In this document: positions 10,121-38,100 of the stretch, in pieces
Position numbering within the stretch: position 1 is the first letter of the stretch
Layout: every line of letters begins with the position of its first letter
Made by a program: the position numbers and the translations under genes
Assembly (NCBI GenBank): GCA_934229625.1
Contig: CAKQDU010000008.1
Location: 360 to 64,359 of the forward strand
Source: an uncultured Alphaproteobacteria bacterium
GTDB taxonomy: Bacteria; Pseudomonadota; Alphaproteobacteria; RF32; CAG-239
Direction of reading: 5' to 3'
DNA length: 64,000 bases
The notes under the pieces: model-generated
Told to the model about the DNA's origin: nothing
Databases searched by the model: none
What the model saw: only the letters and a program-made list of their open reading frames with translations

Positions 10121-10140
10121 GTCCTTACAAAAAAGCCGCC

Positions 10141-10330
10141 TTGATGAGAGGCAGCAGGAAGTTAGAACCTATAATGGAAATAGTGTAGTGTATTCGGCGT
10201 AAGAGCAAGCTCCTACGCCTTATTAGCTACCTTCCTGCTATCAGGCAACAAGGTAGTTTTTCTCATCTGGAAAAACCAGTTATCCATTAGAGGGTTCTAA
10301 ACCTCACATCGGTAATCAACCGCTGCAATT
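10141..10330. ncRNA. candidate structured non-coding element (unclassified)
   Basis: nested complementary segments gatgaga/tctcatc, gcaggaag/cttcctgc, ggcgta/tacgcc, ttagaacc/ggttctaa in a 315-bp non-coding gap at the phage-block boundary. Confidence 0.3.
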
Positions 10331-10387
10331 TAAAGCTAAAAAATTTAACAAGTAATGTCAAACAAATTTTTGTAGTTTTAAAATATA

Positions 10388-10432
10388 AAAAAAACAGAGA
10401 GCCTTTGCTCTCTGCCTTTTATATTTTTGTTT
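10388..10432 (-). terminator. rho-independent terminator (likely bidirectional)
   Basis: cagagagc-cttt-gctctctg hairpin flanked by A8 and T-runs, immediately 3' of the 10435..10872 gene. Confidence 0.6.
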
Positions 10433-10434
10433 TT

Positions 10435-10872
10435 TTACTTATTTTCAGAAATTTTCGGCTGGAAAAATACTTTACGCGTTGCGATAATCAAAGCAAGCAG
10501 CTCACCGCCGTAGCTCAAAGCAACCAATCCCCAGGCTAAATATTCTTTTAACTGCGAACCGACGCTTTCTGACAAGAGAACCGGCACAACCGCCGCGCTT
10601 ACTATATACAAAATCAAAGAAACACAGCCGATGTAATGCATATATACGGAAAAATTAGGAAACTTTGTGATAAAGCTCTGCAAAAAAACAAATTTCTCTT
10701 TGTGTGACAAACCGACAATCAGGAGAATGACAAAAGCCCAAAACATAACGTCTGTTATAGTCTCAATAGGAGCCGCTAAAGATTCAATCCAACGTCCCGG
10801 CTCCGTAATCAGATAGTCTGCTGTAAAATATAATCCGGCAAGCACACACAGTCCTTTACCTTTTATTTCCAT
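10435..10872 (-). CDS. membrane protein (phage region)
   Basis: 145 aa, 4 TM helices. Confidence 0.4.
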   Translation of the reverse strand: MEIKGKGLCVLAGLYFTADYLITEPGRWIESLAAPIETITDVMFWAFVILLIVGLSHKEKFVFLQSFITKFPNFSVYMHYIGCVSLILYIVSAAVVPVLLSESVGSQLKEYLAWGLVALSYGGELLALIIATRKVFFQPKISENK

Positions 10873-10988
10873 TTATCATTCTCCCGATGCAGTTAAATTA
10901 AATAATATTTAAGTGGTAAAACAAAATAATTACAAATGCAAGCAAAATAATTTTATTTTTTGGCTTTTTCTGCGGTCTGCAGAGCGGC

Positions 10989-11660
10989 TTAACTTGCGCC
11001 GCCGCTGGAAAAACCTCCGGCTATTGTCTGCGCGGTTTTAGACATATTATCCCAGCCGCTTTGACGCGCCGATGTCAGACGGTTTTCAATATCCTTATTC
11101 GTGCCGTATAAGTTCGCCTGATTCTGATAGCCGGAAACTGAACCGTCAAGCAGCGCTTTAATTTGCTGAATATAATTCAGCTGCGAATTATTATTGAAAT
11201 TCGCACTGTTAATATTGTCGCTCAAACTTTGGCTATAGACACCCTGCCCCGCCGCAATACTTTGATAAGCCGCCTGCTTCAGCGCCTCATTCTGCTTTTG
11301 CTGCAGGTCGTTCATTGCGCGCTGATAAGCCTCGCTGCCCACTCCGATACCTTTGTTAGCTAAACCGGTCTCTAAATCCGCCTGTAGCTGCTGATATTGC
11401 GGCGTAAGCTTGTCAATAGCCGACTGATAAACAGCGTTTTCCGCTCTCTGGCGAGCCTCGTCCGAGCCGTTTACCGAAAATTGATATTCCGGCATATTAC
11501 CCAGATTCTGACTCATGCTGAGCGCCTGCCCTGTCATATTCTTCAAGGTGTTGTCATAGTTTGAGGTATCATAATTACCCAGATAATTCAGATAGTTCTT
11601 TTCATAACCGTATTTATCGGTTGAAGAACTTGCAAAAACTTTTCCTATTGATTTACTCAT
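10989..11660 (-). CDS. phage hypothetical protein, Q/N/S-rich
   Basis: 223 aa; coiled/low-complexity; 8-bp overlap with GNAT gene. Confidence 0.4.
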   Translation of the reverse strand: MSKSIGKVFASSSTDKYGYEKNYLNYLGNYDTSNYDNTLKNMTGQALSMSQNLGNMPEYQFSVNGSDEARQRAENAVYQSAIDKLTPQYQQLQADLETGLANKGIGVGSEAYQRAMNDLQQKQNEALKQAAYQSIAAGQGVYSQSLSDNINSANFNNNSQLNYIQQIKALLDGSVSGYQNQANLYGTNKDIENRLTSARQSGWDNMSKTAQTIAGGFSSGGAS

Positions 11661-12102
11661 TTATTTTCTCCTTTTCTTTTATCCATTTACATTCTTCTTT
11701 CAGCATACCGAAAATGTAGCAGTCTTCACCGTTTTCACGATATGCCCTAAACATTCCTTCTTGCTGAAATCCGAGTTTTTTAACAAAATTATAGCTGGCA
11801 GCATTGCTTTTGCTGACCAATAAAGATATCCGGCGGCAATTTAAGCCGTTAAACGCAATGCTAAACATTGTCTTTAGCATTCGGCGGTTGCACCAACGCT
11901 TGTCCGTGGTGAAAACAGTCCACCAAACTTCTGTATTTTGGCGGTAGTTATGAAAAATCAAGCCTCCAATCATTTTTCCGCATCTGGCAAAACCAAAAGT
12001 AAGATGATTGTCCAGCCATTCTTTGCCGCAACCTAAACCTTTGCATACCCAATTTGTAATAAGGTCATTTTTGTCCGGCAAAATCTCATATTCATCAATC
12101 AT
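11653..12102 (-). CDS. GNAT-family N-acetyltransferase
   Basis: 149 aa; ...RRISLLVSKSNAASYNFVKKLGFQQEGMFRAY... acetyl-CoA-binding-like motif. Confidence 0.65.
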   Translation of the reverse strand: MIDEYEILPDKNDLITNWVCKGLGCGKEWLDNHLTFGFARCGKMIGGLIFHNYRQNTEVWWTVFTTDKRWCNRRMLKTMFSIAFNGLNCRRISLLVSKSNAASYNFVKKLGFQQEGMFRAYRENGEDCYIFGMLKEECKWIKEKEKINE

Positions 12103-13658
12103 AGCACACCATTTCCTATTTCATAGCGGATTCCGGTTTCATACCACTCTATCAGATTTCCTTTTGTCTTGGTCTTAAACACAATACTGGCTTTATATCC
12201 TGTAGCAGAATTTGCTATCCATTGACTGCGAATTGAGGTACTCTCCGCAGCACCCCATTTTATACCTGACGGATTAGATGAAACAGACCATTTTGTTTTG
12301 TTCCATTTATGCAAACCTGAAACCGACAGGTTTTCTTTATAGCCGATATTGCGCGTCTCCATATCCATGTTGGTATAAATAACCAACGAATAACCGGAAC
12401 TTGATTTTGTACGCGGATTCAATAGTTGAATTTTTTTAATACTGTTGCTTCCCAAATTGTTATAAGCCTGTTCAACACAACCACTGATTTCCATTCCGTT
12501 ATCGGAATAACCTTCATCAAACCTAAAAACTCCTTTATCTGAGCCAAAATACAATCGTTGGCCATACATTCCCCAACAATGCGCGCGAATCCCCGTAAAG
12601 CGGCACCACGCCCCCGTATTCACGTTAATAACATGCTGCTCATATTGGTTGGAAACAGGCACATTGAACAAACCGTAGCCGCCTCGGCTATAAATTATTC
12701 CTTGCCAGCCATAACTTTTTAAGTTGCGGGAAGTACGCGACAAAACCAGACCGCGTATGGCATCGCTGAAAGCTATCTGCGATGCATTTGCCTGCTCTAA
12801 AGGCAGCGCTTTGGATAACGGAATATATCCGTCTTCAGAAATTATTACCACATCCCCCTGATACGGCACCAAACAGTTATATCCTATCGGCCGGCTGATT
12901 TTATATGAACCTCGCAGCAGCCATTTGTCGGCGTTGTTAATATCCGAACCGGTATAGACCAATGCTTCTCCCTCCGATGTGATAAATACGGTCAAATCAT
13001 CTATTCCTTGTCCGCCATCCTGAGTCCAATTGGCAACCGCCACAATTTCTCCGCCAAAACGGGCAACCTGCGAAAAATCAAAACAATTCAGTTTTCCAGC
13101 TATGTTTCCGGCTGTTTCCGGATACCAAACTTTAAGCGTTCCTCCTTCAATAAACCACAAACGTTGTTTAGAAAGGCCGACACCGGCTATGCGAGCAGCA
13201 TTAAGATTTTCAGCACTAAACCCCCAATCTTCAAAATGTTCGTTTTCATCGCCGTCCTGCCAATAGACTTTGGGCGTGTCACGGCCATTTACAAAATACA
13301 AATAGTTTTTATATTGCTGCGTACGGCAATAACTGTTGGAAAATTTTATATTTTCATAAGCATAAATATTTTTCTGCGAACTGATGTTATAGACTTTGCC
13401 GCCGGAAACAGCCAAGAAACGGCCATTATCCCCTGATTTATATTCAGATAAAGTACATACTTTTTCAGGCAATTTTACATATTCAACATAGCCTTTACGC
13501 AATGCAACCTTTGTATCTGTCGGCATATAATTATCCATAACAATGGCATAGTCCGCGTTCATATCCGACAAAGCATCGCGGACATTCAGTCCCTTAATCG
13601 GAGCCGGCAGCGTATAACTTACCGATTTATTGCCCCGTATTACCGATTTTAACCTCAT
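12099..13658 (-). CDS. phage structural protein (possible tail tubular protein B-like)
   Basis: 519 aa, follows a 240-aa protein downstream of capsid, as in T7-like tail-tube A/B order; assignment by position only. Confidence 0.35.
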   Translation of the reverse strand: MRLKSVIRGNKSVSYTLPAPIKGLNVRDALSDMNADYAIVMDNYMPTDTKVALRKGYVEYVKLPEKVCTLSEYKSGDNGRFLAVSGGKVYNISSQKNIYAYENIKFSNSYCRTQQYKNYLYFVNGRDTPKVYWQDGDENEHFEDWGFSAENLNAARIAGVGLSKQRLWFIEGGTLKVWYPETAGNIAGKLNCFDFSQVARFGGEIVAVANWTQDGGQGIDDLTVFITSEGEALVYTGSDINNADKWLLRGSYKISRPIGYNCLVPYQGDVVIISEDGYIPLSKALPLEQANASQIAFSDAIRGLVLSRTSRNLKSYGWQGIIYSRGGYGLFNVPVSNQYEQHVINVNTGAWCRFTGIRAHCWGMYGQRLYFGSDKGVFRFDEGYSDNGMEISGCVEQAYNNLGSNSIKKIQLLNPRTKSSSGYSLVIYTNMDMETRNIGYKENLSVSGLHKWNKTKWSVSSNPSGIKWGAAESTSIRSQWIANSATGYKASIVFKTKTKGNLIEWYETGIRYEIGNGVL

Positions 13659-14349
13659 TGATTATTACTCCTCCCAATTCTGCGCATTCTGCACTTTTTG
13701 CTAAATTTATATCAGAGGACGAATGTTCAGAACCAAAGCGTTTTTTTAATTCACGCTGAAATTCATCATATTCTTCTCCATAATCCAAACCGCTGCGTTT
13801 AAGCCAACGCCACAAAATATTCAGCTTAACCAAATATTCGTCAAAAACCGGAACATCCGTATTTGAAGTCAGGGAACTTTTCTCCTCAAAAGTATCAAAA
13901 TCCCAAACAACACCGTTGGAACGATATTGAAAAACAATACGCATTCCTCCGGGCGGCGGCGTCAAAAACACAAAACGCCCGTTCTGAATTTTAAATTTCA
14001 ACTCATTTCCCGAACTATAAAAGTACTTTTCTCTCATCCATTGTTCCGGTGTAATCGCGCCGATAATCCGTTCTTTACTGTCTTTTATAAAAATCGTATT
14101 ATTCAGCAAACAATAAAAATCCGGCAAAAATTCGGATATTGGATATTGAGTGCGTCCTTCAACCGTACGCAAACACCCTTCTTTAGTCAGCTCCTGCCAA
14201 TCGCCATAACGCAACAGGCTGTCCAGCGCCGACTTAGCCACACTCAGAAAAATACTTTCCTGTTGACTGTTGGCATCAAACAAATTATCGGGGCGTTTGG
14301 TTGCGGCCAAATCTGCAACCTCGCGGCATATTTCCAAAATTGTCTTCAC
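13627..14349 (-). CDS. phage structural protein (possible tail tubular protein A-like)
   Basis: 240 aa; position after capsid module. Confidence 0.3.
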   Translation of the reverse strand: MKTILEICREVADLAATKRPDNLFDANSQQESIFLSVAKSALDSLLRYGDWQELTKEGCLRTVEGRTQYPISEFLPDFYCLLNNTIFIKDSKERIIGAITPEQWMREKYFYSSGNELKFKIQNGRFVFLTPPPGGMRIVFQYRSNGVVWDFDTFEEKSSLTSNTDVPVFDEYLVKLNILWRWLKRSGLDYGEEYDEFQRELKKRFGSEHSSSDINLAKSAECAELGGVIINEVKIGNTGQ

Positions 14350-14969
14350 AGCTTTTCTCCTTTTTCAAATAGATTTTTTTTGCGTTCATTGTTCAAGGCA
14401 CGTTGGACAACAGCTAGCTGTTCGCGCAAAGCTTCTATCTCTCGCTCATATTCAAGTTCTTTTTCAACAAAATCATTCAATGCTTTGTTATTATTTGATT
14501 TTTCTAAAAACATTTGTGCTAAAACGTGTTCATTTTGCAGCCCCAAACTCTGCACTTTGTCAAAGTCAAGCTCCGCCAAAGTTTCAACCGTAAATACGCC
14601 ACGACTTTTGCAAGTAGCTATTTCAGCCGCTGTCAGAAATGCAAATTGTTCCAGCGGCGTACCTTTTTCAATCTGTTTTTTAGAAAGCTGATATAAGGCA
14701 TATTCTTTGGGAAAACGTCTGATTTTTTCGGCTGTGGCCGGTTGATTAAACACTTCGGTATTATTATCTTTCAGGCGAATTTCAACATAAGTCACATTTT
14801 TGAAAACCGGCATTCCATTTTCAGCAACTTCGCTTGTTTTGACTGCTTTATCATAAAATCTCGCAGCCACATTTTTTTCACTTTCCCCCTGATTCATAAT
14901 TTGCTGAATCAGGGCATATTCCATATCCATAGTTTTTTCCTTTTTTACTTTAAAAAATTTATATAACAA
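14346..14969 (-). CDS. phage hypothetical protein
   Basis: 207 aa; 4-bp overlap with next gene. Confidence 0.35.
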   Translation of the reverse strand: MLYKFFKVKKEKTMDMEYALIQQIMNQGESEKNVAARFYDKAVKTSEVAENGMPVFKNVTYVEIRLKDNNTEVFNQPATAEKIRRFPKEYALYQLSKKQIEKGTPLEQFAFLTAAEIATCKSRGVFTVETLAELDFDKVQSLGLQNEHVLAQMFLEKSNNNKALNDFVEKELEYEREIEALREQLAVVQRALNNERKKNLFEKGEKL

Positions 14970-15014
14970 ATTGAAAAGGAGTGATTTTATTCACTCCCTT
15001 TCTTTATTGGATAA

Positions 15015-15980
15015 TTATTCTTTAGTGTTAATCAACACACCTTGAACCGCGGCATTAGACATAGTCATATTACCGGCCCAACCGATTATGCGGTATAAAG
15101 CATCTTGATTTACAGCTAATCTGTCACCACCGATAATTTTCATGTTACGGTCTCTATGTGTGCGAAGATAAATATAGTTAGTATTCAAAAAATACATATG
15201 ATTCTCAGGACAATGACCGCCTTGACCTCCATCAAAAATCACATCGGCCCCCTTAAATTTTAGACTTATAAAACCGGCATCGGCCATTTTAGGGTCTGAA
15301 AAACGCTGTAAAGCCGATAATGATTCGTCAAACATTGCGTACAAAGCGTCATTGCAAACAACCAAATCCGGTTTATCCGCGTTGCGACAACATTTGTGAT
15401 ATAACGTATTCATTACCTGACGAATGTTTGAAGCGTCAACATTAGCGCTGACAGATTGATTACGCCAAAATTCATTTCCGGCCGACGAGCGGTCTATACC
15501 GCCAACGGTGCCTGATGTCGGGTCATCAGCAACCAACAACGCCAAACCGCCGATTTCTTTGCCGGAAGAACCAGTGCCGTCGCTGAACAATGCCGCAGCC
15601 ATCTGATTTTTTAAAGTTTTTTCCGCATTGGAAATACGTTTTTCAAACAAATCCATAATTTGTTCCGGACCGCTGTTCATCAGCAATTCTTCGCCTGAAA
15701 TAGCAACGGGAACAGCGCATAATTTCAATGCGTATTCCGCAGCCGTAAACAATTGTTTCGGGGTGTAATTGATAGTGTCATATCCGGAATACCACACCAT
15801 ATCTCCCTCGCCGTATTCCAATTCCTCCAAAATTTTGGAACCGCCACTTAACGGACGCATTTTTCCTTTATCTCTGAGGCGCGCCAACAACGCGTTGTTT
15901 TTAGAAATGTTATCCGCCATTTCTTTTGAACGATTTGCCAATGTTACGGTAAACACTTCGTTGTAGTTTTTATTTGTCAT
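15015..15980 (-). CDS. putative major capsid protein
   Basis: 321 aa immediately downstream of an acidic scaffold-like protein; length and C-terminal pattern reminiscent of T7-type gp10. Confidence 0.5.
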   Translation of the reverse strand: MTNKNYNEVFTVTLANRSKEMADNISKNNALLARLRDKGKMRPLSGGSKILEELEYGEGDMVWYSGYDTINYTPKQLFTAAEYALKLCAVPVAISGEELLMNSGPEQIMDLFEKRISNAEKTLKNQMAAALFSDGTGSSGKEIGGLALLVADDPTSGTVGGIDRSSAGNEFWRNQSVSANVDASNIRQVMNTLYHKCCRNADKPDLVVCNDALYAMFDESLSALQRFSDPKMADAGFISLKFKGADVIFDGGQGGHCPENHMYFLNTNYIYLRTHRDRNMKIIGGDRLAVNQDALYRIIGWAGNMTMSNAAVQGVLINTKE

Positions 15981-16004
15981 TTTTTTATCCTTTTAAAATT
16001 TAAG

Positions 16005-16880
16005 TTAATCCATAAAAGCAGCCATGTTTTTTTCAATCTCTTCCCTTAAAGTCAGAGGTCTGTTCGGTGCTTTTGCTTTTCCTTTCGGAGAAAACGCCGC
16101 TTTCTGCGCCTTTTGCGCATCTTCGGCTTCTGAGTTGATTTGTTTGGCAATCAACTCTTTACGGACATCGGCATTGAGCCAAACCGCCTGTTTATAGGCA
16201 TCTTCAAAACCGGCAGCCAGTCCGCTTTGCAGCAAATTACGCATTTGATTGTAAACAGTTTCAAAATACGGATACAAACGACGTCCGTTTTCATCTTTTT
16301 GAGCGCCGAATGTTTGTAATTGACTGTTAAAATCAGCGCTTTGACGTTGCTGCAAATAATCTCTAAGACTATGAAAACCGGCATCCAGTTCTGATAGTCT
16401 TTCTAAAATCCTATTTGTTATTTCTGTTTGAGGAGTTTCAGTAAATTGAGCTTTAACATTAAATACTTTAGCTATGGCGTTTAAGGTTTCCGCCGGACGG
16501 CTGTGAATTTGCTCATCTATAAAAATTAAACCGCTAAGCCATTCCTGCAAACTATGAATACCTTCTTCGCCACAGCGTTTTTGTAAAACATCATCAAAAC
16601 CTTTAAGCCAATTTATAATCTCCAGTTTTGCTGATAATTCCTTACGTTCAGCTTTTATTTTTTCTTCACGCTTGTTTAAATATTTCTGCCATTTGGGAGA
16701 AAGTTCGCTGAACGCAGCCGCATATTCAGGTTCAAAATCGGCAGGAGCGGCAATCAGCACTTTTTCCGCTTCATTATTTGCTTCAGCCTTAATTTCGGCG
16801 TCTGCATCAACATTCGGTTCAGATAAGCCGAATGCTTTGAACTGACGTTCAATTTCTTTTCTTAAATCATTCATTTCCAT
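16005..16880 (-). CDS. putative capsid scaffolding protein
   Basis: 291 aa, highly acidic, helical/coiled, directly upstream of capsid gene. Confidence 0.45.
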   Translation of the reverse strand: MEMNDLRKEIERQFKAFGLSEPNVDADAEIKAEANNEAEKVLIAAPADFEPEYAAAFSELSPKWQKYLNKREEKIKAERKELSAKLEIINWLKGFDDVLQKRCGEEGIHSLQEWLSGLIFIDEQIHSRPAETLNAIAKVFNVKAQFTETPQTEITNRILERLSELDAGFHSLRDYLQQRQSADFNSQLQTFGAQKDENGRRLYPYFETVYNQMRNLLQSGLAAGFEDAYKQAVWLNADVRKELIAKQINSEAEDAQKAQKAAFSPKGKAKAPNRPLTLREEIEKNMAAFMD

Positions 16881-17143
16881 ATCATCCTTTTGTAGTTATA
16901 AAGAAAATCGGCAAACAAAGACTGCTGCCGTTCTCTTTCTTGTTGATTGCGAATATTTTGATAATATTCGGCTGAATAGTCGCTGGCCAGAGCTAAGCCC
17001 GTGGCGCGCAAATACTTGTCAACGTCCGCGACCGAAGACGCGACAGATTCGTCCGGAAGAAGCACATCTTCCGCGAATTGCTTACTGATGTAGGTCATCA
17101 TATTTCTCCAAATTTCGGATATAAAAAAACGCCTTGTTTTCAT
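16871..17143 (-). CDS. phage hypothetical protein
   Basis: 90-aa ORF, overlaps scaffold start by 10 nt. Confidence 0.3.
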   Translation of the reverse strand: MKTRRFFISEIWRNMMTYISKQFAEDVLLPDESVASSVADVDKYLRATGLALASDYSAEYYQNIRNQQERERQQSLFADFLYNYKRMIWK

Positions 17144-17184
17144 ATCAACAAAGCGTTTTGCTTCATAAAGCCAATGATTATTTT

Positions 17185-17409
17185 TTATAGTTTTCCAGCG
17201 GCTTTTTTCTGCCGGTTTTCATCTGTTATCGTCACGCATCCGGTTTGGTTGTTCCAACTCAAACAATCATCACGGCAGATTTTTTGCACCGGGTCATATA
17301 TCTTTCCAATATCCAAGCAATAGGCTTGTTTATCAAAAAACAAATATCCGGCAAAACCAATAACAGCCAAAATGATAAATACTGCTGCAAAATAAAATAC
17401 CCGTTTCAT
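17185..17409 (-). CDS. small membrane protein
   Basis: 74 aa, N-terminal TM, Cys-rich tail. Confidence 0.3.
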   Translation of the reverse strand: MKRVFYFAAVFIILAVIGFAGYLFFDKQAYCLDIGKIYDPVQKICRDDCLSWNNQTGCVTITDENRQKKAAGKL

Positions 17410-17415
17410 ATGTTT

Positions 17416-17796
17416 TTATTCCTTAATTAACTTTTCTATAGTATATTTCCATATCCACCAATCGCCGTAATCCGGCCATAGATAGCGATATAGCAAACAG
17501 TGCAGCTGAAATACTAAATACATAATATCAACTCCGCACAAAAAATAACTTATACAGACGCATTTTGATAAACAAAATAAACCGACTAAAGGAATATATA
17601 AACAAGGTATTAAATGCACAAAAATTGTTGCTAAAATATCTGCAGTTTCAGGTGTATCAGGCTCAATAAAATAATGTACAGAGCTTTCTGCCGCTAAAAC
17701 AAATGATATTATCAAAAAGCACAAAAATACATATTTAACTGTTTTATAATCCCAAGTTTCAGTCATTATTTTAATTTTGCACTCCCTAAAGTCCAC
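17416..17796 (-). CDS. membrane protein
   Basis: 126 aa, 3 TM. Confidence 0.3.
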   Translation of the reverse strand: MDFRECKIKIMTETWDYKTVKYVFLCFLIISFVLAAESSVHYFIEPDTPETADILATIFVHLIPCLYIPLVGLFCLSKCVCISYFLCGVDIMYLVFQLHCLLYRYLWPDYGDWWIWKYTIEKLIKE

Positions 17797-17969
17797 AAAA
17801 CCTCATTTCCGGCACTTATTACAGAAAAAAAATTTTGATTTGTACAAAATAAAAAATATCCTGCAACAAAACCTATATACATAAATTTAATTCTGCGCGG
17901 TACAAAGAAAAATGAAACCACTAATAATACTAACACTATACCATAAAATAAAATTTTAATCATATCCAT
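17766..17969 (-). CDS. small membrane protein
   Basis: 67 aa, 2 TM. Confidence 0.25.
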   Translation of the reverse strand: MDMIKILFYGIVLVLLVVSFFFVPRRIKFMYIGFVAGYFLFCTNQNFFSVISAGNEVLWTLGSAKLK

Positions 17970-18262
17970 CTCAGTATCTTTCTTTCATTCCTCTGTAGCA
18001 CTAATAAGTTGTATTAAGTATTATCAATCAACTGTTTGCAAATTGCAAGTTATTTTTTACCAAAATCATCACGATATTCTTCCTCGCTTCTTTCCGGAGC
18101 AAGTTCATTGTCGCTGTAAGCGTTTTCGTCTTCCGGTTCCGGCTGTGTAGGAACATTAGAAACTCTGCCATAAGCCTCATCTTCCGGCACCCAGCCGTAA
18201 GCCTCGTTTTCACGTACCATTCTTGGTCTATAAGTCATTTTATTTTATCCTTTCTAAAAAAA

Positions 18263-19588: not shown

Positions 19589-19793
19589 TTATAAAATCCA
19601 CCAAAATTTTTGTTAAGTTTTCCGCCGATTGCGAACTTTCTTTATCGGTTTGCATAGCGGCAATTTTACATTTTAATTCTTCCGCCTTTAGAGCTAAATT
19701 GATATTTCCCTCATCAACAGCCATTTGCTGTAGACGATTTAACATTTCCAAACTTTCGGCAAAAGAATAGGCTTGTAATTTTTTTTTGACCAT
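19530..19793 (-). CDS. phage hypothetical protein (possible small terminase)
   Basis: 87 aa helical protein immediately upstream of the large terminase, overlapping it. Confidence 0.25.
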   Translation of the reverse strand: MVKKKLQAYSFAESLEMLNRLQQMAVDEGNINLALKAEELKCKIAAMQTDKESSQSAENLTKILVDFINDKQNDSKNTENICSADET

Positions 19794-19804
19794 TATTCTT
19801 ATCC

Positions 19805-20257
19805 TTACTTAATATCATTATAAAACAAATGATTACCGGCAATATAACATGGTGTTTTACCAATTGCCCATTTAGGTTTTATCTGCTTTGTATGATAAAA
19901 CAGCGCCCCGTTGGTAAAATCCTGCAAATTACCGGACAGAGCTTTTTGCGCCACCTGAAGACATTTTTGAAATCCGTAGGCTGTAATTGTTTTTTGACAC
20001 AGCATCTTGTAATTGACGTCATTTTTATTCCAGCAACTGAACTGCGCTTTTTTCAAACAAGTTTGAGCCACATTCGGAATTTTTTTGCCATTTTGCATTT
20101 CATATCCGGTAAACCATTTGTTTGCCCTAAATCTGTTTAAAATAACACAAGCCACCGCCTCCAGCCCTTCATCTCCCTCGCCTCTGGCTTCGCCAAACAA
20201 AGTACGGGCAAAAATCTGTAAATCATACTCAGTCATTTTTACCGGCCTTTCCGGCAA
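19805..20257 (-). CDS. cell-wall hydrolase (SleB/CwlJ family), putative endolysin
   Basis: LFGEARGEGDEGLEAVACVILNR motif of Hydrolase_2 family; adjacent to holin-like gene. Confidence 0.75.
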   Translation of the reverse strand: MPERPVKMTEYDLQIFARTLFGEARGEGDEGLEAVACVILNRFRANKWFTGYEMQNGKKIPNVAQTCLKKAQFSCWNKNDVNYKMLCQKTITAYGFQKCLQVAQKALSGNLQDFTNGALFYHTKQIKPKWAIGKTPCYIAGNHLFYNDIK

Positions 20258-20516
20258 CTAAAGCCGATAATTTTGTTTTGATAAATTCATTTCCCCATTC
20301 ATATAGCGCGCGGCTAAAAAAAATCACCACACAAGAAATACCGCTTCTGGTTGCTCCCGAAAGTGCGGCATAATCCAAAAGCAAATACATAATATACCCC
20401 ATGCAAAACGCCAAAACAGCATCTATTGTAGCCTGAAAAAAACCTTTATAATGCACATATGCTGACGCAATCGCCATCAGCACAAACAGCGCAATTGTTT
20501 TTAAATCGTCTATCAT
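20229..20516 (-). CDS. putative holin
   Basis: 95 aa, 2-3 TM helices, charged C-terminus, overlaps hydrolase gene start. Confidence 0.4.
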   Translation of the reverse strand: MIDDLKTIALFVLMAIASAYVHYKGFFQATIDAVLAFCMGYIMYLLLDYAALSGATRSGISCVVIFFSRALYEWGNEFIKTKLSALVAGKAGKND

Positions 20517-20974
20517 TTAACCTCTGAAATATTACTGAGAGATGCTTTTTCACTTTCGTTCCAGCTTACAAAATCTAAAACTTTTATATTTGGGAATTCA
20601 TCTGTTTCAGGAATTTTCCGCAAATATTCCAAATATAGCAAATACCTTTTATATGTTTCTAAACTGTCAGCAGTCGGCAAACCGGCGGCGGATTGTTTTT
20701 CATATCTATCGGCTTTTGCTAATATCGTATTCATAAAGGCATCTCGTGACAAACGCACTACCTCGGCCAAAACATCAGACGATAAATCCGTTGTTTCGGC
20801 TATTTCAAAATAATCCGGACGGCAATCTTTGATATCATAACCGTGTTTATTACAAAATTGCGACATTTTTTCATATATAAGCTGATTAAACTCACCTGCT
20901 TTATCAGGAAAAAGTCTAAATCCGATAACAAACTGCCCGTCACAATCTTGCTGATTTTTATAACTATCATTCAT
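20513..20974 (-). CDS. phage hypothetical protein
   Basis: 153 aa. Confidence 0.3.
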   Translation of the reverse strand: MNDSYKNQQDCDGQFVIGFRLFPDKAGEFNQLIYEKMSQFCNKHGYDIKDCRPDYFEIAETTDLSSDVLAEVVRLSRDAFMNTILAKADRYEKQSAAGLPTADSLETYKRYLLYLEYLRKIPETDEFPNIKVLDFVSWNESEKASLSNISEVK

Positions 20975-20989
20975 CTTTTTATTCCTTAT

Positions 20990-22405
20990 CTAAACATAAC
21001 CGATTGCAACCCATTCAAGCGCAACATTTGAAGAAACGGCGACGCTAAAACCGGTTGTCGTCTTCAAAATGGTGTCACAAAAAACAGAAACTGCTCCAAC
21101 CAAATTCCCCGTCATAGCCGTAACCTGTGTTAAAACAACATACGATGTGTCGGCATACGGCTGCTTAAACAAAATCTTAGAGCCATTTGTCACCCCATCC
21201 AATCCCCATTGAAACAACAGACGATTACCAAATTTGCAGCATCCTGAGGTTTTTAATAAAGTGGTGACAATAGAATTTATGCATTCACAAGCCGGCGCTG
21301 TTGTCATAACATTGCCGCTTTTATCAATATAAACTCCCATATCACCGCATTTATTGTCGGCATTGCAAACATATAATGATGATTTTATCGCTCCTTCCGG
21401 AGTTACATCCGTATAAATTGAACCATATTCTGTATCATTTTTATCCAGCGACCTGAAACCTGTAAAAATATGTTTATTCGGAGTTTCTCCAACGGCATAT
21501 TTATCTCCTTTATATATACTGCGATTATTAAAAGTATTTGCATTAAACACATTCACCGATGTCAATTTTGCATAATTAGCATCAGCATATTCAAGATTTA
21601 GAGCTTCCGTTGGTTTGCCGGCAACCGGCGTAGGCACGGTGACATATGTTTGTCCGTCTGCCGTGATATGAACTCCAAGTTCTGCCGTGTTTTTTGTTCC
21701 GTCTGCCGCATAACTGTTCGCGCTTAAAAGCAAATGCGATGACTTATCGGGATTTACCACATTTTTTATCTGTCCGCAAACTCTGTCATTTTTATCACTC
21801 ATAACATAACTGCGGCTATGTGCCGTTTCTATTTTATCGGCAAAAGAAAATTGAAGATTTTTTTGAATCACCGCGCTTTCACTATCCGAATTTTGCACAG
21901 ATAAACCGCTGACTCCCAATACGCCGGATTTTATTTCATCACCAAATCTATGTAATAAACGCTCATCATCAAAAATTTCTGCGCTTTCTGCCGCTGATTT
22001 TGCGCTTTCTGCCGCATTTTGCGCACTTTCAACCGCTGCGGCGGCTGACTGTTTGACAATATGTGCATCAACAGAAACCGCGGCAGCATTTTCAGCGGCC
22101 GCGGCAGCTGCTTTTTCGGCAGTTTCCGTATCAATCCGCACTTTGATACAATTTTGCGCAACCTCTGCTTCACTCTGTGCCGCCGCATTTGCGGAATTTT
22201 CTGCCTTTTCCATCGCATTTTGCGCTTGTTTTTTATAATTTTTAAGCTCCGGCAGAATTTCCTTGTCAGTATATTCTTTTATTTCTGTCTGACCTGATTT
22301 CACATACATAAGCTCAACATCCAAATTCAAGACAACTTCATCCTGCCAATAAATTTCAATATTTTGAGTTTCGATACAATTTACGGAAACTATATTTTCA
22401 TTCAT
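20990..22405 (-). CDS. putative tail fibre protein
   Basis: 471 aa with central Ala-rich heptad region (AAAAAENAAAVSVD...ESAQNAAESAKSAAESAE) and Cys-containing C-terminal domain. Confidence 0.45.
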   Translation of the reverse strand: MNENIVSVNCIETQNIEIYWQDEVVLNLDVELMYVKSGQTEIKEYTDKEILPELKNYKKQAQNAMEKAENSANAAAQSEAEVAQNCIKVRIDTETAEKAAAAAAENAAAVSVDAHIVKQSAAAAVESAQNAAESAKSAAESAEIFDDERLLHRFGDEIKSGVLGVSGLSVQNSDSESAVIQKNLQFSFADKIETAHSRSYVMSDKNDRVCGQIKNVVNPDKSSHLLLSANSYAADGTKNTAELGVHITADGQTYVTVPTPVAGKPTEALNLEYADANYAKLTSVNVFNANTFNNRSIYKGDKYAVGETPNKHIFTGFRSLDKNDTEYGSIYTDVTPEGAIKSSLYVCNADNKCGDMGVYIDKSGNVMTTAPACECINSIVTTLLKTSGCCKFGNRLLFQWGLDGVTNGSKILFKQPYADTSYVVLTQVTAMTGNLVGAVSVFCDTILKTTTGFSVAVSSNVALEWVAIGYV

Positions 22406-22412
22406 ATTTACC

Positions 22413-22772
22413 TCACTTTGTTACTTGCGGAGTTATGCGAAATATTCCGACTTTATTCACATCCGCCGGAAAAATTGTGTTTGTATCTCCGTTGGCGAAC
22501 ACGACCTGAATATCGGTTTTATAATTACCCACCGGAGCAGAAGTTTCTGCCGGAGACAGTCTCAGCAGATAAACACCTATAGCCTCGTCAACTTTTTCAG
22601 CTTGTTTTTGAAAAACCAAAGCATCATCATTTTTTTGCCGTACCTGCATAGTAATTGTCATTGCGGATAAATCTATTTGTTTGTTTTTCGCATTAAATTT
22701 CAATTTTATATTAAAACTGTCTCCTTGCCGGACTTCTACAATGTTTGAACCGGCTAAAATTCTTCCCGTCAT
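22413..22772 (-). CDS. phage hypothetical protein (beta-rich)
   Basis: 119 aa between the two fibre genes. Confidence 0.3.
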   Translation of the reverse strand: MTGRILAGSNIVEVRQGDSFNIKLKFNAKNKQIDLSAMTITMQVRQKNDDALVFQKQAEKVDEAIGVYLLRLSPAETSAPVGNYKTDIQVVFANGDTNTIFPADVNKVGIFRITPQVTK

Positions 22773-22775
22773 TGC

Positions 22776-23540
22776 TTATTGCTCCTTTTTTACCTTAATA
22801 AAATAATTAACAGCCTGATTAACCGGCGTTACATGATTGCTGGCGCCATAAATTGCATTACAGCGTCCGGCATCAAATGTAAAATAGGCAGCGCTGTTTC
22901 CGCCGTCTCCACTTCGAGAAGAACCGCCTGACAATGAAGCCTGAAACGCTCCGCTTGCCGCCGGATTGCGCAAATAACCGTCTTGAGCTTGTGTCTGACC
23001 GGTAATATTCGGCAAGCCTTCAGGCTGAGTGGTTTGCATATCTGAAGCCGAATCTCCGCCTAAACCGCGCAAAAATTTGCCGCGATAATCAGGAAGATTA
23101 AAAGTGGAAGTACCGTCTCCGGCGCCAAAACTTGTTCCGATTAAAGAAAACAAATCGCTGTATTCCGAGCGACTTATCGCCTGACCGTTGCACAAAAACC
23201 ATTTGTCATGATTATTTTTTTGCAATGACGCTTTTATATCGCCGACACAAAATAACGCATTCAAAAGTTCGGTTTGCTGTTTTGCAGCCGCATCCAATTG
23301 CTCTTTATTAACAGCATCTTTTTCTGCCGTACCTTTTCCCATGTTGCAAATTTTAAACCCTCCCATTTTAAGCTCACCCTGCATCGGAGCCCGTCCGTCT
23401 TTGAGCAGACATTCACTCAGTCCATCGGCAAAATTATCGTCTTCTTCATCATGACGGTCAGACACAATATCTATTTCATTTTTACGGTCGTCTTCCCAGC
23501 TGTGTATACGCGTAAACAATCCGTTACTATCATAAGGCAT
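22776..23540 (-). CDS. tail fibre protein with phage tail-collar domain
   Basis: CNGQAISRSEYSDLFSLIGTSFGAGDGTSTFNLPDYRGKFLRG matches Collar domain consensus (C-NG..L....Y..LF..IG..YG.GDG.TTF.LPD.RG). Confidence 0.7.
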   Translation of the reverse strand: MPYDSNGLFTRIHSWEDDRKNEIDIVSDRHDEEDDNFADGLSECLLKDGRAPMQGELKMGGFKICNMGKGTAEKDAVNKEQLDAAAKQQTELLNALFCVGDIKASLQKNNHDKWFLCNGQAISRSEYSDLFSLIGTSFGAGDGTSTFNLPDYRGKFLRGLGGDSASDMQTTQPEGLPNITGQTQAQDGYLRNPAASGAFQASLSGGSSRSGDGGNSAAYFTFDAGRCNAIYGASNHVTPVNQAVNYFIKVKKEQ

Positions 23541-23552
23541 ATTTTTTCTCCT

Positions 23553-25289
23553 TTATTTTATGTTGTTAAGCTCAGTAAACTTTTTTAAATCAAGTTCTTC
23601 GCGTTTAAGCTGATTTTGTTCTTTTTTAATGGCAAAATCGCATTCCATTTTTTTATTTTGAAATTCAAGCATTTTATCTTCTGTAGGTTTTACTGGCATA
23701 TCCGGAGAATTTAGTTCACGGCTTATTTTATCAAACGCATCCTCCAAAACACTTTCAAATTGCCGAGCATTTGAAAGTGTTGCCGCCGCAGCTTCAATCA
23801 TTTGCCTATACAAAGGCAGCAACGCCGGCTGCTGTGAAACAATGCCAAAAGCCTGACTTATCATTTCATTGATGTTTGACAAGACTTTAAGAATATTTTC
23901 TTCTTGCCGATTGATGTCAAAACTGCCGTCTGTTTCTATATCAATCACCATATCGCGCAGCTTTTGAGTTTTCAGCAATTCGATGGCTTGTCCAATCAAT
24001 TCCGGATTTTTTGCGGCATCTTCGGAAGCAAATGAAGCCAATGTTTCGGGAGAAAACTGTTCACAAATAATCTCTGCTTTTATGCGTAGCAAATCTTTCA
24101 AAAAACGCTGCATATCATTTTGGCGGTCCTGGTTACGCAAAGTACCAAAATTTGTTTTTTTCACCACGGCAGTTGCAGTATCTTGAGAATTTGACGAACC
24201 GCGCATAATATCGCTGACACCAGTTACTTCATAAACGGCTTCGGTCAGCACCTGCCGTCGTTCAGCTAAAACCTGCAAAGTTGCGATATATTGTTCAATC
24301 GGAGCAAAATCTATAATTCCCCTGATACCTCCGGCGTCTTTTAATTTTTCAAAATCGTTCAAAGCGATAAGGGTAACATCCTTATCTAAAATATTTGCAA
24401 GCTCCGGAAAAGAATTGTCATAGCAACCGGAAACTTTCAGAGCCTGCATTGTCAGGCGCATTCGGTTGTTTACGCCATCAAGTTCATCCAGCAGACTTTT
24501 AATTTCCACATAATCCGGCACCGGAACAATTCCGTCATTGCTAAGTGTCGCCATAATCGGTTTAGGACACGGAAAAAATCCGCTCAAATGCAAAGTATCT
24601 TCATTGATTTGCAAAAAATCATCTGGATATTCCGGACTGAGATAATATATTTTGCGAGTTTTCTTATCCCAAATTTCATAAACCGAGATGCTTTTGTCGG
24701 TGAAATTATGCTGCCAGAAATAATTTGCCAAATCTTCATTAAAATTAGAATAAATCTCGCTTACATTCATAAAAGTTTTGCGAGCAATCCATTCAACATC
24801 TTCCCAGACATTTACTTTATCAATATCGGCCAAAAAAGACAAAGGATTAACATATTGAGTTGTAACCTGCTCCTTATCTTTTAAAATCACATTGCCTATA
24901 TATTTGAAGCTGGATTGATATTGTTCCCATAATATACCCATACCGGAAAGCAAAAAATCATTGCGCGCATATTTTATGACACTATCAAAGTCAAATTGCT
25001 TCATATCCCAATCCAAAGCTTTTTCCAAAATTTGACAAGCAGTATTTTCAACAGCGTCGGCTTTTTTATTTCCTCTGATGATAAACGGCTGCGGCTGTCT
25101 GAAATATAGGAATGGTTTCAGCGTTTCTACCGACGACCAAAAAATGTTTTGTTTGTTACGATTGCGCTCATTGCGATAATATTTTCGAATTTCTTCAACT
25201 AACGCATAATAATCGCCATAAGTTTTTTCAGATGACCTAATTTTGCTAAGCCATTCCTGATATAATTTGCTATTATTTTGTTTTTCCAT
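23553..25289 (-). CDS. putative portal (head-to-tail connector) protein
   Basis: 578 aa; size and central segment pattern resemble T7 gp8-type portals; located in the structural module. Confidence 0.5.
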   Translation of the reverse strand: MEKQNNSKLYQEWLSKIRSSEKTYGDYYALVEEIRKYYRNERNRNKQNIFWSSVETLKPFLYFRQPQPFIIRGNKKADAVENTACQILEKALDWDMKQFDFDSVIKYARNDFLLSGMGILWEQYQSSFKYIGNVILKDKEQVTTQYVNPLSFLADIDKVNVWEDVEWIARKTFMNVSEIYSNFNEDLANYFWQHNFTDKSISVYEIWDKKTRKIYYLSPEYPDDFLQINEDTLHLSGFFPCPKPIMATLSNDGIVPVPDYVEIKSLLDELDGVNNRMRLTMQALKVSGCYDNSFPELANILDKDVTLIALNDFEKLKDAGGIRGIIDFAPIEQYIATLQVLAERRQVLTEAVYEVTGVSDIMRGSSNSQDTATAVVKKTNFGTLRNQDRQNDMQRFLKDLLRIKAEIICEQFSPETLASFASEDAAKNPELIGQAIELLKTQKLRDMVIDIETDGSFDINRQEENILKVLSNINEMISQAFGIVSQQPALLPLYRQMIEAAAATLSNARQFESVLEDAFDKISRELNSPDMPVKPTEDKMLEFQNKKMECDFAIKKEQNQLKREELDLKKFTELNNIK

Positions 25290-25351
25290 AATTTTTCCCC
25301 ATAGAAAAACAGGCCCGTAAAATAACGAGGCCTGTTTTATTAAAAAATTTA

Positions 25352-25600
25352 TTATTTTATAATTTTACCCAAAAGGCTTTTCTCACGTATGACAACCAGG
25401 TCATCCTGCGGTAAAGGCAATTCATCAAAACAATGAAACAAAACTTTATCTCCAACTTTTGCCCATGTAACATCCTCGCCAATACTTTGCACAACACCTT
25501 GATTTACAATATTATTCTTAATATCATTAAAAATAATCCGGCCATGTTTAAGTTTATCAGGCTTAATAATAAGCCTGTCTTTTATAGCTTTTAGCATCAA
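25352..25600 (-). CDS. GroES-like co-chaperonin
   Basis: 82 aa; KAIKDRLIIKP...VGDKVLF... matches Cpn10 N-terminal (L.DR.(I/V).K) and C-terminal (VGD.V.F) signatures. Confidence 0.5.
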   Translation of the reverse strand: MMLKAIKDRLIIKPDKLKHGRIIFNDIKNNIVNQGVVQSIGEDVTWAKVGDKVLFHCFDELPLPQDDLVVIREKSLLGKIIK

Positions 25601-25726
25601 TATATTTCTCCAAAAAAACAGAGATTAAGCTGATTTCAATCAAAAGCTTAATCTCTAAAAATATAAGTTTTATCAAAACACAATTTTACATGATAGTAAT
25701 TTTATTATCATACAGGTAACCAAATG

Positions 25727-26221
25727 TCAAGAACTTTTTTCATTTTTTTGAAAATAAAATTTAACAAGCCTTTCCAATCCCAGCACCAGCAAGCTTTTCA
25801 GATGATATACAACTTGTTTGCTCAGCAAACTATGCTTAATAATATTCTTATCTGCTTTTAACTCTTTATCTTCTATACAGACGCTTCTGACAACGGGCCA
25901 AAATTCTGTCGGAATGCTCTGTATCGCTTTTATATAGCGCTCTTTATAAATCAACGCATCCTCACGGCAAGAATAATTTGAATTTGTTTTTATTAAAGAA
26001 ATTGATTTCAGATTATTATAATTTCCAAGATAAAAATCTTTTAAGAGACGTTCTCCTGCTATTTTGCGGTCTTCGGCGCTAAATTTACTGCCTTTAAGCT
26101 CTAACACGCCGTTTTCATAGTATTTTTCCAAAACAGAGAGTTTATATAAACCGCCTTCCCGGCGTTTACGATAACCTTTTTTAATTGCATTTTCTTTTGA
26201 TATATATTCTTCATCTGACAT
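25727..26221 (-). CDS. hypothetical protein
   Basis: 164 aa. Confidence 0.3.
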   Translation of the reverse strand: MSDEEYISKENAIKKGYRKRREGGLYKLSVLEKYYENGVLELKGSKFSAEDRKIAGERLLKDFYLGNYNNLKSISLIKTNSNYSCREDALIYKERYIKAIQSIPTEFWPVVRSVCIEDKELKADKNIIKHSLLSKQVVYHLKSLLVLGLERLVKFYFQKNEKSS

Positions 26222-26350
26222 TTTTACCTCCTATTTTTCCTGAAAATATAAGATAAATATTATAATGTCAATAAGAAAAATATCGTTTTACATTGTAAGA
26301 TTTATATTATATAATGCTTTATATATAATTTTTCAAAAAAGGTAATAAAA

Positions 26351-26794
26351 ATGGATGATACAGAAGAAATAAGAAAAAAAATTGCCCGTCTAATTAACGA
26401 ACGCGGCTTGAACTTTGCAAAAGTTTCTCTCAGCATAGGAAAAAATATTGCGTACATTCAACAATTTATTAAAAACGGCTCTCCCAGACGACTTGGCGAA
26501 GTTGAACGACAAAAATTGGCTCGTCTTTTAAAAGTCGATGAACAGGAACTGACAGATTTGCCGCTTAAAGTGTCTTCCGGATATGCACCGGCTGTTAATC
26601 AGGATGTTTTGTGCCTGGTTATAGAAAATATTGAATCATGGTTGGAAAAACGCGAATCAAAAATGTCTCCTCATGATAAAGCTGAACTTATTCGCCTGCT
26701 CTATTCAAAAATCTGCAACGAATCTTTAGAAAACGCCAATGCCAAAATCAAAGACTATATGGATATTTATGACGAATTCCGTAAAGTAAATTAA
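26351..26794 (+). CDS. XRE-family HTH transcriptional regulator (phage repressor-like)
   Basis: N-terminal HTH ...IARLINERGLNFAKVSLSIGKNIAYIQQF...; divergent from structural genes. Confidence 0.65.
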   Translation: MDDTEEIRKKIARLINERGLNFAKVSLSIGKNIAYIQQFIKNGSPRRLGEVERQKLARLLKVDEQELTDLPLKVSSGYAPAVNQDVLCLVIENIESWLEKRESKMSPHDKAELIRLLYSKICNESLENANAKIKDYMDIYDEFRKVN

Positions 26795-27031
26795 AATAAT
26801 ATGTTTTAGGACTATATAATAATGGATATTGATGAACAAATTCGGGATATTTTAATGAAAAGTACACCGATAAATGATAATTCGGCTCAAAAAAAATCTC
26901 CGCTTTCTACCGCTATTTCACAAAATTTTGGTATTAGCGTCATCGGCAATCAAAATATTGTAATCGGCACAGGAGTCGTGCAACTACTTTTGCTGCTAAG
27001 CATTTTACTCTGCTGTGTTTGTTTGCGCTAG

Positions 27032-36124: not shown

Positions 36125-36152
36125 TATGTGCAATTTTTGGAGGTTTAGAAAT

Positions 36153-37811: not shown

Positions 37812-38100
37812 TTTTGCGGTTGACTTATGAAAAAAGGCTGTTATAGAATTGGAGTGTAAACAACATAATTTTAGAGGAAAGAAAGATGAAAAATAAGCTA
37901 TTCAAAGGTCTCTCTCTCTCTCTGCAAATCCTAAACATCTGATTAAAGGCATATTTTTTGCCACTCAGCGTGTTTTTGCAGAGTTCAGCGCAAAAAATCA
38001 CACATTCGAAAATAACACATTCAGTAGCTACTCTATAAAGGGTTCTGGATTGCTTCGTCGTTGCACTCCTCGCAATGACATTTGCAGCGTGGGACGTTCC
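37812..38100 (+). promoter_or_regulatory. conserved promoter-leader module of pilin paralog 2 (sigma-70-like promoter 37820-37847, uORF 37886-37942 with (TC)7 at 37909-37922, inverted repeat ctctgcaaa/tttgcagag)
   Basis: ttgact-N16-tataga; module ~90% identical to copies at 44869 and 45786; uORF MKNKLFKGLSLSLQILNI preceded by gaggaaag RBS. Confidence 0.6.

Follow-up and report, generated by a model that had tools for sequence, protein, structure and literature searches.

A conserved podovirus-derived particle and lysis gene cluster beside priA in uncultured gut Alphaproteobacteria: a candidate gene transfer agent-like element

What kind of element is a block of phage particle and lysis genes that lies in a bacterial chromosome with no integrase in view? 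The question is raised by positions 10989-27031 of a 64,000-nt stretch of contig CAKQDU010000008.1 (assembly GCA_934229625.1) from an uncultured alphaproteobacterium. This whole stretch is referred to as the window; all coordinates are positions in it, and L-numbers (L002, L022 etc.) denote the loci or contigs of relatives. An earlier note had offered a decaying prophage, a domesticated particle of the gene transfer agent (GTA) or tailocin type, or a satellite. With genes assigned from an open reading frame (ORF) listing and from PHROGs and Pfam profile searches, we find the block to be a podovirus-derived cluster of particle and lysis genes that is conserved, fixed in the host chromosome and maintained by selection, and not an ordinary or decaying prophage. 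On balance we lean towards regarding it as a GTA-like, chromosomally fixed, domesticated derivative of a temperate podovirus resembling Mx8 and Brucella Tb. Judged from its sequence, such an element would produce particles, package DNA at random and transfer it.

The profile searches recognise in the block a podovirus-type particle gene set and a lysis cassette, in agreement with the functions and strands that had been proposed for it. As in GTAs, phage-derived structural, packaging and lysis genes are present in the chromosome. Only two ORFs lie on the plus strand, the repressor-like gene xre147 (26351-26794) and a 69-aa ORF (26822-27031). All others are on the minus strand, in the following order from 26221 downwards: p164, a GroES-like gene, the portal gene, a Collar-domain fibre, a 119-aa protein, a 471-aa fibre, a 153-aa ORF, a holin-like gene, a SleB-type lysin, an 87-aa ORF, the large terminase gene (terL), four small variable ORFs, a 90-aa protein, a scaffold-like gene, the capsid gene, a 207-aa protein, an adaptor, a 519-aa protein, a GNAT acetyltransferase and a 223-aa virion protein. 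The major capsid protein (15015-15980) matches phrog_9953 (3e-109) and is 45-48% identical to the capsids of ppBjS10J-1, Mx8 and BUCT555 and 28% identical to that of Brucella Tb; a search of its sequence against solved structures gave no matches. The portal protein (23553-25289) matches phrog_12082 (2.4e-115) and shares 25-29% identity with the portals of Mx8, Brucella Tb and BUCT555. TerL (18263-19588) carries the Terminase_3 domain (PF04466, 4e-33), and its nearest cultured relatives, at 31-34% identity, are the proteins of the P22-like phages Sf6, HK620 and CUS-3.

The block shows none of the marks of a temperate prophage: no integrase or excisionase was found, no replication module, no att sites and no cleavable repressor. 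The absence of an integrase from view, remarked on before, was confirmed by tblastn of a large serine recombinase and a tyrosine integrase against the 64 kb, which found none (a search with these two queries, short of a full profile scan of all ORFs), and by Pfam analysis of 20 flanking genes, which recognised host functions only. Within 10 kb these include ArgRS, LolA, an ABC transporter and a glycosyltransferase on the left and priA, MazG, MutS and a histidine kinase on the right, which is the predicted setting between glycosyltransferase and priA. The idea that an integrase lies just outside, making the block an ordinary prophage, is contradicted by the flanks, which consist of host genes in 17 related genomes. 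The suggested search for att-like direct repeats at the block ends yielded a single 12-mer, i.e. the chance level. No tRNA, tmRNA or Rfam RNA was detected near the element, no replication gene, initiator or primase in the block or flanks, and the GC content of the block is the same as that of the flanks. The block and flanks are therefore like GTAs in having no replication, integration or excision machinery of their own. Two further phage types were considered and rejected: a Picovirinae-like small phage, as no protein-primed polymerase was found, and a transposable Mu-like phage, as xre147 matches phrog_296 only weakly, at the helix-turn-helix level. Among 119 flank proteins of relatives there is one recurrent recombinase family, a 226-aa resolvase/invertase, in few loci and not in the window. 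It carries Resolvase and HTH_11 domains, lies just past the end of the tail genes (L002:19775-20452, minus strand; L022:11382-12059, plus strand) and might drive inversion or phase variation of the adjoining glycosyltransferase region.

The comparison across relatives that had been proposed as a check points to a largely stable chromosomal position in the clade of the window. There, 17 loci in genomes and 5 contigs from metagenomes have the block directly adjoining priA, with priA genes 76-96% identical, and neighbour-joining trees of priA (the one host marker used) and of the capsid plus 519-aa protein give the same groups. Pairwise comparison of the window with eleven relatives, at dS values mostly of 0.8 to >2, gave dN/dS ratios of 0.04-0.10 for TerL, 0.03-0.09 for the capsid, 0.03-0.12 for the portal, 0.04-0.14 for the 519-aa tail protein and 0.03-0.15 for the repressor xre147, the host gene priA showing 0.03-0.08. 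The ratios are higher, up to about 0.3, for the scaffold, collar fibre, p164 and lysin, and low for most of the other element genes tested. The element has thus been under long-term purifying selection, as GTAs are, and its intact genes, with most ratios at 0.03-0.14 (some about 0.3) at saturated synonymous sites, rule out the decaying prophage that had been considered.

These data also bear on the notion of a cryptic, defective prophage remnant that forms no particles and is kept by chance or for programmed lysis or superinfection exclusion. It would account for the missing integrase and early genes, for the disappearance of two virion proteins and of half of the small terminase (TerS), for the scrambled gene order and for the absence of the element next to priA in some near relatives. 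We nevertheless consider it quite improbable: all structural genes are intact in dozens of species, the terminase, capsid and portal have dN/dS ratios (0.03-0.12) as low as that of priA at dS of at least 1, the regulatory region is nearly invariant, and lysis or exclusion alone would not constrain the terminase, portal, capsid and adaptor so strongly.

The family to which the block belongs is widespread. TerL relatives at 57-100% identity occur in at least 80 species-representative genomes, nearly all of them metagenome-assembled genomes (MAGs) of uncultured Alphaproteobacteria that live in the gut of humans, mice, horses or ruminants, and tblastn with all block proteins found the same approximately 20 families together in most of 80 loci (at least 60 species-level genomes). 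The closest genomes share 78-87% DNA identity with the window, so the closest carriers are different species. When 50,697 phage records were searched with the block by Megablast, none matched. No cultured phage is close to it. Four loci with 95-96% identical TerL (L005, L007, L008, L072) come from bins labelled Bacteroidaceae, [Ruminococcus] gnavus or Eubacteriales; they too have priA where the locus reaches it, and mis-binning or mislabelling is the likely source of these labels.

Gene order within the family is variable. More distant relatives, including a 17-kb sequence (MT835830.1), have a canonical order that begins with the repressor (minus strand), DUF6456 gene, TerS, TerL, GroES-like gene and portal and continues with the 90-aa protein, scaffold, capsid, tail proteins, GNAT, virion protein, collar fibre, fibres and lysis genes. 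In the clade of the window the order is regulators, GroES-like gene and portal, fibres and lysis genes, truncated terS (terS') and terL, scaffold, capsid and tail. The separation of the portal from the capsid, which had been described as unusual, is therefore real, and results from a lineage-specific reshuffling of the canonical order kept in relatives. At least four different orders occur in the family: in L022 the terS'-terL pair is placed after the tail genes, and in L062, L065, L066 and L075 the adaptor, portal and 519-aa protein stand ahead of the terminase. An assembly artefact was rejected, the same arrangement being found in independent assemblies from many studies. A phage genome packaged as a unit could not tolerate several orders and a terS'-terL pair standing alone, as it does in one rumen MAG, whereas a chromosomally fixed set of genes can.

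What has been lost is evident from comparison with full-length relatives. IMG/VR contains contigs of 30-35 kb with 60-70% identical capsids (e.g. IMGVR_UViG_3300029094_000103), which are true temperate phages of the family. Their repressor has a Peptidase_S24 domain, and the interval from the repressor to TerS is occupied by three DNA methyltransferases and further early genes. A large serine recombinase of 514 aa is encoded beside a dnaB gene, and the 223-aa virion protein is followed by two additional large proteins, of about 320 aa and 620-780 aa. The window element and other short forms are devoid of the recombinase, methyltransferases, early genes and both extra virion proteins. The latter, which match neither the window nor phage pCB2047-C and belong to no Pfam family, are by their position guessed to be ejection proteins. 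The neighbours of the short loci (flavodoxin-like protein, Hsp20, MurD-like ligase, mechanosensitive channel, AnmK-like kinase, CCA-adding enzyme, nitroreductase) are host genes. Short and long forms may also coexist: the MAG RGIG3474 contains a short rearranged element (L065) as well as a long phage-type relative (L067) with early genes and an extra virion protein.

A second loss affects packaging. The 87-aa ORF between the lysin gene and terL (s87, 19530-19793), whose end overlaps the TerL start codon, is a TerS remnant. The full-length TerS proteins of relatives have 129-194 aa and Terminase_2 or GP3_package domains, neither of which was detected in s87 by profile search. Alignment of the s87 family with the Terminase_2-type TerS family using hhalign (probability 91%, E 1e-6) was confined to residues 131-194 of 194, and a terminal LV-F-V/I motif just before TerL is common to s87 and all three TerS families. 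Since s87 aligns with only the last approximately 60 residues of TerS, the lysis-terminase junction appears to cut through terS and remove its DNA-binding half, which would make packaging by self-recognition unlikely. The small terminases of studied GTAs are likewise short, at 92-125 aa versus 145-184 aa in phages, and retain the C-terminal TerL-binding helix (PMC6854486). A short TerS is thus a property that the window element shares with GTAs, and it would probably act without specific DNA recognition. In the rumen MAG mentioned above, a truncated terS and a 76% identical terL (L026:9778-11300) lie alone among host genes; no other element gene is found within 10 kb on either side, which implies a split locus.

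Regulation seems to have changed as well. Homologues of xre147, a repressor-like protein with a CI/LexA-type DNA-binding N-terminus, have 211-281 aa and Peptidase_S24 in relatives, and those of the window clade that were checked have 146-171 aa (mostly 147) and in no case an S24 motif. The repressor of the long phage forms has the S24 Ser/Lys pair (GDSM...KR); in the canonical short clade it mostly reads GDAM or GEAM, with Arg replacing Lys. Given general knowledge of LexA/CI self-cleavage, induction should no longer be coupled to RecA once S24 is lost. The leftward operon opens with the gene for p164 (25727-26221), a putative activator or antiterminator of the DUF6456 (GafA) family: PF20057 matches p164 itself at 0.0021 and 17 of the 41 family members, at best with 9.8e-11. 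GafA, the activator of RcGTA, is annotated as DUF6456 (PMC9638019, PMC9765227). A search of the p164 profile against the sequences of solved structures gave no matches, and a structure predicted from 15 homologues (mean pLDDT 55) was too poor for a fold search.

Between xre147 and p164 lies a divergent promoter/operator region (26222-26350) with the best sigma-70-like sites of the block, TTTACA-17-TATAAT on the plus strand and TTGACA-17-TATTTT on the minus strand. A core of about 70 nt, which holds the repeated ATTTTTCTTAT, is nearly invariant in 10 species, including cases where the p164 protein is down to about 50% identity and this adjoining core is almost unchanged. The CtrA-box TTAA-N7-TTAA occurs 4 times in the window versus 7.6 expected, and not at all in the regulatory region. 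Terminator-like hairpins are present within the operon, e.g. directly 3' of the capsid gene (15002-14973); together with p164 they would fit antitermination control, of which they are no proof.

The cluster has kept all the genes that a DNA-filled tailed particle and cell lysis would require. Gone are the genes for integration, early functions and DNA modification, those for two large virion proteins, and the part of TerS that would recognise sequence. A possible mode of action may be outlined from this gene content. The truncated repressor xre147 would keep the divergent promoter shut until, upon a host signal, p164 switches on the approximately 15-kb leftward operon, perhaps also carrying transcription through the internal terminators. 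Capsids would then assemble and be filled by TerL and the TerS remnant, which lacks a DNA-binding domain, with headfuls of whatever DNA is available. Finally, the holin and SleB-type lysin would free the particles, whose variable fibres might bind related cells.

Could the block still be a selfish mobile element, i.e. a minimal temperate phage, or a "structural" satellite that depends on co-resident full-length relatives for integration, for replication and for the two virion proteins it lacks? We regard this as unlikely, and the satellite that had been proposed earlier likewise. An integrase, a replication initiator and an att repeat were not found in the block or its flanks. The flank and the scrambled order persist at saturated synonymous divergence, the element tree matches the priA tree, the terS'-terL pair has been split off in L026 and moved in L022, and deletion of the DNA-recognition half of TerS would leave little means of self-recognition. 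Moreover, known satellites have given up structural genes while retaining an integrase and replication genes. The block shows the reverse: all structural genes are retained, among them those for an adaptor, tail proteins and fibres of its own, and neither the integrase nor the primase of phage-inducible chromosomal islands (PICIs), including capsid-forming PICIs, is present. In favour of mobility, full-length relatives with 60-70% capsid identity infect the same host group, L065 and L067 residing in one MAG, and DNA has recently been exchanged. The terminase and lysin tract (18077-20517) is 95% identical to L002, as against about 80% elsewhere (TerL dS of 0.05, versus 0.8-1.8 for the neighbouring capsid and portal and for priA), and the GNAT and virion protein genes (10989-12102) differ from those of L060 by a dS of 0.04-0.08. 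Such mosaic tracts show homologous exchange between lineages.

Further observations support the mobile alternative or otherwise weigh against a GTA-like element. The place beside priA is not universal: three contigs with 82-84% identical priA, near element-bearing clades, have other genes there, and L027 combines the gene order of the window with another flank. The 17-kb relative MT835830.1, from human faeces, was deposited as an unverified bacteriophage record. The capsid plus tail tree recovers every short form as monophyletic, yet places the long phage forms here and there between the short ones, which allows several independent reductions as well as recombination between phages and resident elements; the history may therefore be one of repeated reduction or such recombination rather than of one old domestication. 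An intact S24 catalytic pair survives in some other short clades, and full-length TerS is kept in other short lineages. In addition, the heads of the capsid's relatives take up about 40 kb of DNA. A cluster of 16 kb could in principle be accommodated in one such head, and it would then depart from the classical definition of GTAs as elements that cannot package themselves.

Another alternative emerges from the fibre and lysis genes. The collar fibre (22776-23540; PF07484, 1.1e-19; phrog_523, 1.3e-19) is followed in 33 loci by the 119-aa fibre-associated protein (22413-22772; phrog_1084, 1.6e-10; weak BppU_N match). Next comes a putative receptor-binding module (20513-22405) of the 471-aa second fibre (20990-22405) and the 153-aa ORF, which have no profile match and are assigned by their variability: in relatives with approximately 90% identical capsids this module is 41-70% identical or has been swapped for the families F20, F45 and F28. 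Hypervariable fibres beside such conserved head genes are as expected if particles still must bind cells. The lysis cassette consists of a holin-like protein with two membrane helices by hydropathy (20229-20516) and a SleB-type endolysin (19805-20257; Hydrolase_2, 4.5e-16; phrog_938). A complete lysis cassette, variable receptor-binding fibres and the loss of probable ejection proteins are also what could be expected of phage-like particles that serve as weapons or for lysis-mediated release, in the manner of bacteriocins, without gene transfer. This seems to us very improbable, because tailocins and similar tail-only particles have no capsid, portal and terminase, which here are among the most conserved genes, and the podovirus tail has no contractile or membrane-depolarising machinery. 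Of the two kinds of domesticated particle that had been suggested, the evidence therefore favours the GTA-like one and excludes the tailocin-like one. In rumen relatives, a protein with a Stealth_CR2 domain (family F34, capsule phosphotransferase-like) is encoded between the fibre and lysis genes (L012:7927-8601, L017, L028 and L076). Another variable cargo protein of relatives' elements (L039:4139-4741 and family F17, with 20 members, e.g. L002:18558-19016) is not found in the window; by eye, its C-terminal stretch resembles a serum amyloid A motif (…YYHCKANYNA…PEEYW).

The remaining particle genes are assigned with differing certainty. The GroES-like co-chaperonin (25352-25600; Cpn10, 2.7e-6; phrog_3188) is kept in 52 loci, in every one just upstream of the portal gene. 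The 90-aa head-module protein and the 291-aa scaffold-like protein (16005-17143, the latter at 16005-16880) belong to families of 41 and 63 members with a fixed place upstream of the capsid gene. Of the three head proteins named in the earlier note, the portal and capsid have phage profile matches; the scaffold-like protein has none, and its probable scaffold function is deduced from its membership of a conserved family and from its position, which equals that of the annotated scaffold in phage pCB2047-C. Three tail proteins (12099-14969) are the 207-aa protein (phrog_20268), the 240-aa adaptor (phrog_6013, "tail protein", and SU10_adaptor at 27.3 bits, i.e. at the Pfam threshold) and the 519-aa protein (phrog_5107, 5.6e-77), which is 27% identical (1e-52) to its counterpart in pCB2047-C. 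Neither PHROGs nor Pfam detected a tape measure or tail tube in any ORF of the block. The 149-aa GNAT acetyltransferase (11653-12102) and the 223-aa virion structural protein (from 10989) form a pair with PHROG matches (10989-12102; phrog_4470, 2.8e-33; phrog_6121, 6e-13), beyond which the flanks differ between relatives, the latter being the last conserved gene of the element.

The conserved element thus has its left edge at about 10989, and GNAT is not encoded by the first ORF of the block as previously delimited. That ORF (10435-10872, minus strand) encodes a 145-aa membrane protein with three hydrophobic helices, present only in 8-9 close relatives; it is outside the conserved core, as cargo or a host gene at the boundary. 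A hairpin resembling a strong terminator lies at 10420-10389, and the 314-nt intergenic region between the glycosyltransferase and membrane protein genes (10121-10434) contains two strong terminator-like hairpins and has no Rfam match. At the right edge, the 69-aa ORF downstream of xre147 has one hydrophobic segment at residues 44-62 (a C-terminal membrane helix) and no PHROGs or Pfam match; its family (F21) adjoins xre in 14 related loci, and its end abuts the priA stop codon. The four small ORFs of 62, 67, 126 and 74 aa (17185-18238, minus strand), three of them membrane proteins by hydropathy, occur in the closest relatives only and have no profile match. In more distant genomes with 63-70% identical priA (L145-L149, L157, L216), the five genes after priA encode about 184, 516, 303, 480 and 125 aa, sizes that suggest atpHAGDC, a synteny replaced by the element in the clade of the window. 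Elsewhere in the window there are five paralogues of about 215 aa (family F25: 36126-36767, 38050-38700, 45099-45761 and 46016-46669 on the plus strand, 50614-51324 on the minus strand), which occur also in the flanks of relatives; the one copy tested matched the prepilin-type N-terminal methylation motif weakly, with a score under the threshold. Such a pilin-like cluster could be relevant to DNA uptake or as a particle receptor.

Few GTA lineages are known, and, if the GTA-like reading is true, the present family would add a widespread one from gut and rumen Alphaproteobacteria. A wider reading, put forward tentatively as a serious but not yet probable possibility, is that it represents a third, independently domesticated alphaproteobacterial GTA lineage, podovirus-derived and gut- and rumen-wide, with extant phage ancestors and graded intermediates. 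These would lead from a dead S24 domain to its loss, from full-length TerS to a stump, and from the canonical order to scrambled and split loci, possibly documenting the change from phage to GTA several times in parallel. Close living phage relatives and stepwise intermediates are lacking in the classic systems; here the route from prophage to GTA could be compared gene by gene (loss of the integrase, repressor cleavage, terminase DNA recognition and probable ejection proteins, then relaxed gene order), which would make the origin of GTAs tractable. There is also a practical consequence, as virus-prediction pipelines file such clusters as viral (IMG/VR, GenBank "Bacteriophage sp."), inflating virome counts if they are host-owned.

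In the literature that could be searched, this family does not appear to have been described. RcGTA and CcGTA (Rhodogtaviriformidae and relatives) are, like the window element, domesticated clusters of about 15 kb without integrase and replication genes, with a truncated TerS and a GafA/DUF6456-family activator. The operon of CcGTA is similarly long and has internal terminators, and in Caulobacter GafY and GafZ are stated to activate and antiterminate it (PMC11150451, as cited in 10.1101/2024.11.20.624540). RcGTA, however, is siphovirus-like (tail tube, tape measure), whereas profile searches assign to the window element an adaptor of podovirus type and a collar fibre; they detected in none of its ORFs a tail tube or tape measure such as those of the siphovirus-type g1-g15 head-tail cluster. 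It also differs in having lysis genes and the regulator inside the cluster, the latter paired with a CI-like repressor, and no CtrA-box signal in its regulatory region.

BaGTA (Bartogtaviriformidae) is also a chromosomal, integrase-less cluster of capsid, packaging and fibre genes in an alphaproteobacterium; it is vertically inherited and co-diverges with its host, as may hold for the window element. Its TerS, of 107-109 aa and directly upstream of TerL, is likewise short, and its core order of TerS, TerL (447 aa), portal (620 aa), a protein of about 280 aa and capsid involves genes of similar size (PMC3610622; PMC6854486). BaGTA particles are reported to be short-tailed or tail-less, and the TerL of phage pCB2047-C nests in the BaGTA clade (PMC9662315). 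This phage, through which, along with the published description, BaGTA itself was compared, shares with the window element the trio of 519-aa protein, GNAT and structural protein. Its TerL is nevertheless only 31% identical to that of the window, and over the N-terminal half only, the window TerL being nearer to the Sf6 type; the window capsid and portal have no BLAST match in it. Moreover, no counterpart of the BaGTA run-off replication origin and brr genes lies within 10 kb of the window element, and the regulator of BaGTA is BrrG/Q-like, that of the window element of the GafA family. BaGTA is reported to be restricted to Bartonella (PMC6899734), and no Bartonella sequence was among the top 120 matches to the pCB2047-C terminase.

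The GTA-like FpGTA of Faecalibacterium resides in a gut commensal and has podovirus-like morphology (PMC12946183), as is proposed, from genes alone, for the window element. Its host is a Firmicute and its packaging data are experimental; set apart by its description, it gives no indication of shared ancestry. The 2026 paper calls it the first GTA-like element of the gut and the first with podovirus-like morphology (PMC12946183), so the present family was evidently not known to its authors.

There are also affinities with temperate podoviruses of the Mx8/Tb group (Mx8, Brucella Tb, Bradyrhizobium ppBjS10J-1, Stenotrophomonas BUCT555) and with gut prophages, which have a homologous capsid, portal and tail module. 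In contrast to the window element, these phages retain the canonical order (TerS, TerL, GroES-like gene, portal, scaffold, capsid, tail, fibres, lysis), together with an integrase, an S24 repressor, methyltransferases, early genes and the two extra virion proteins, in genomes of 30-53 kb versus the 16 kb of the window element.

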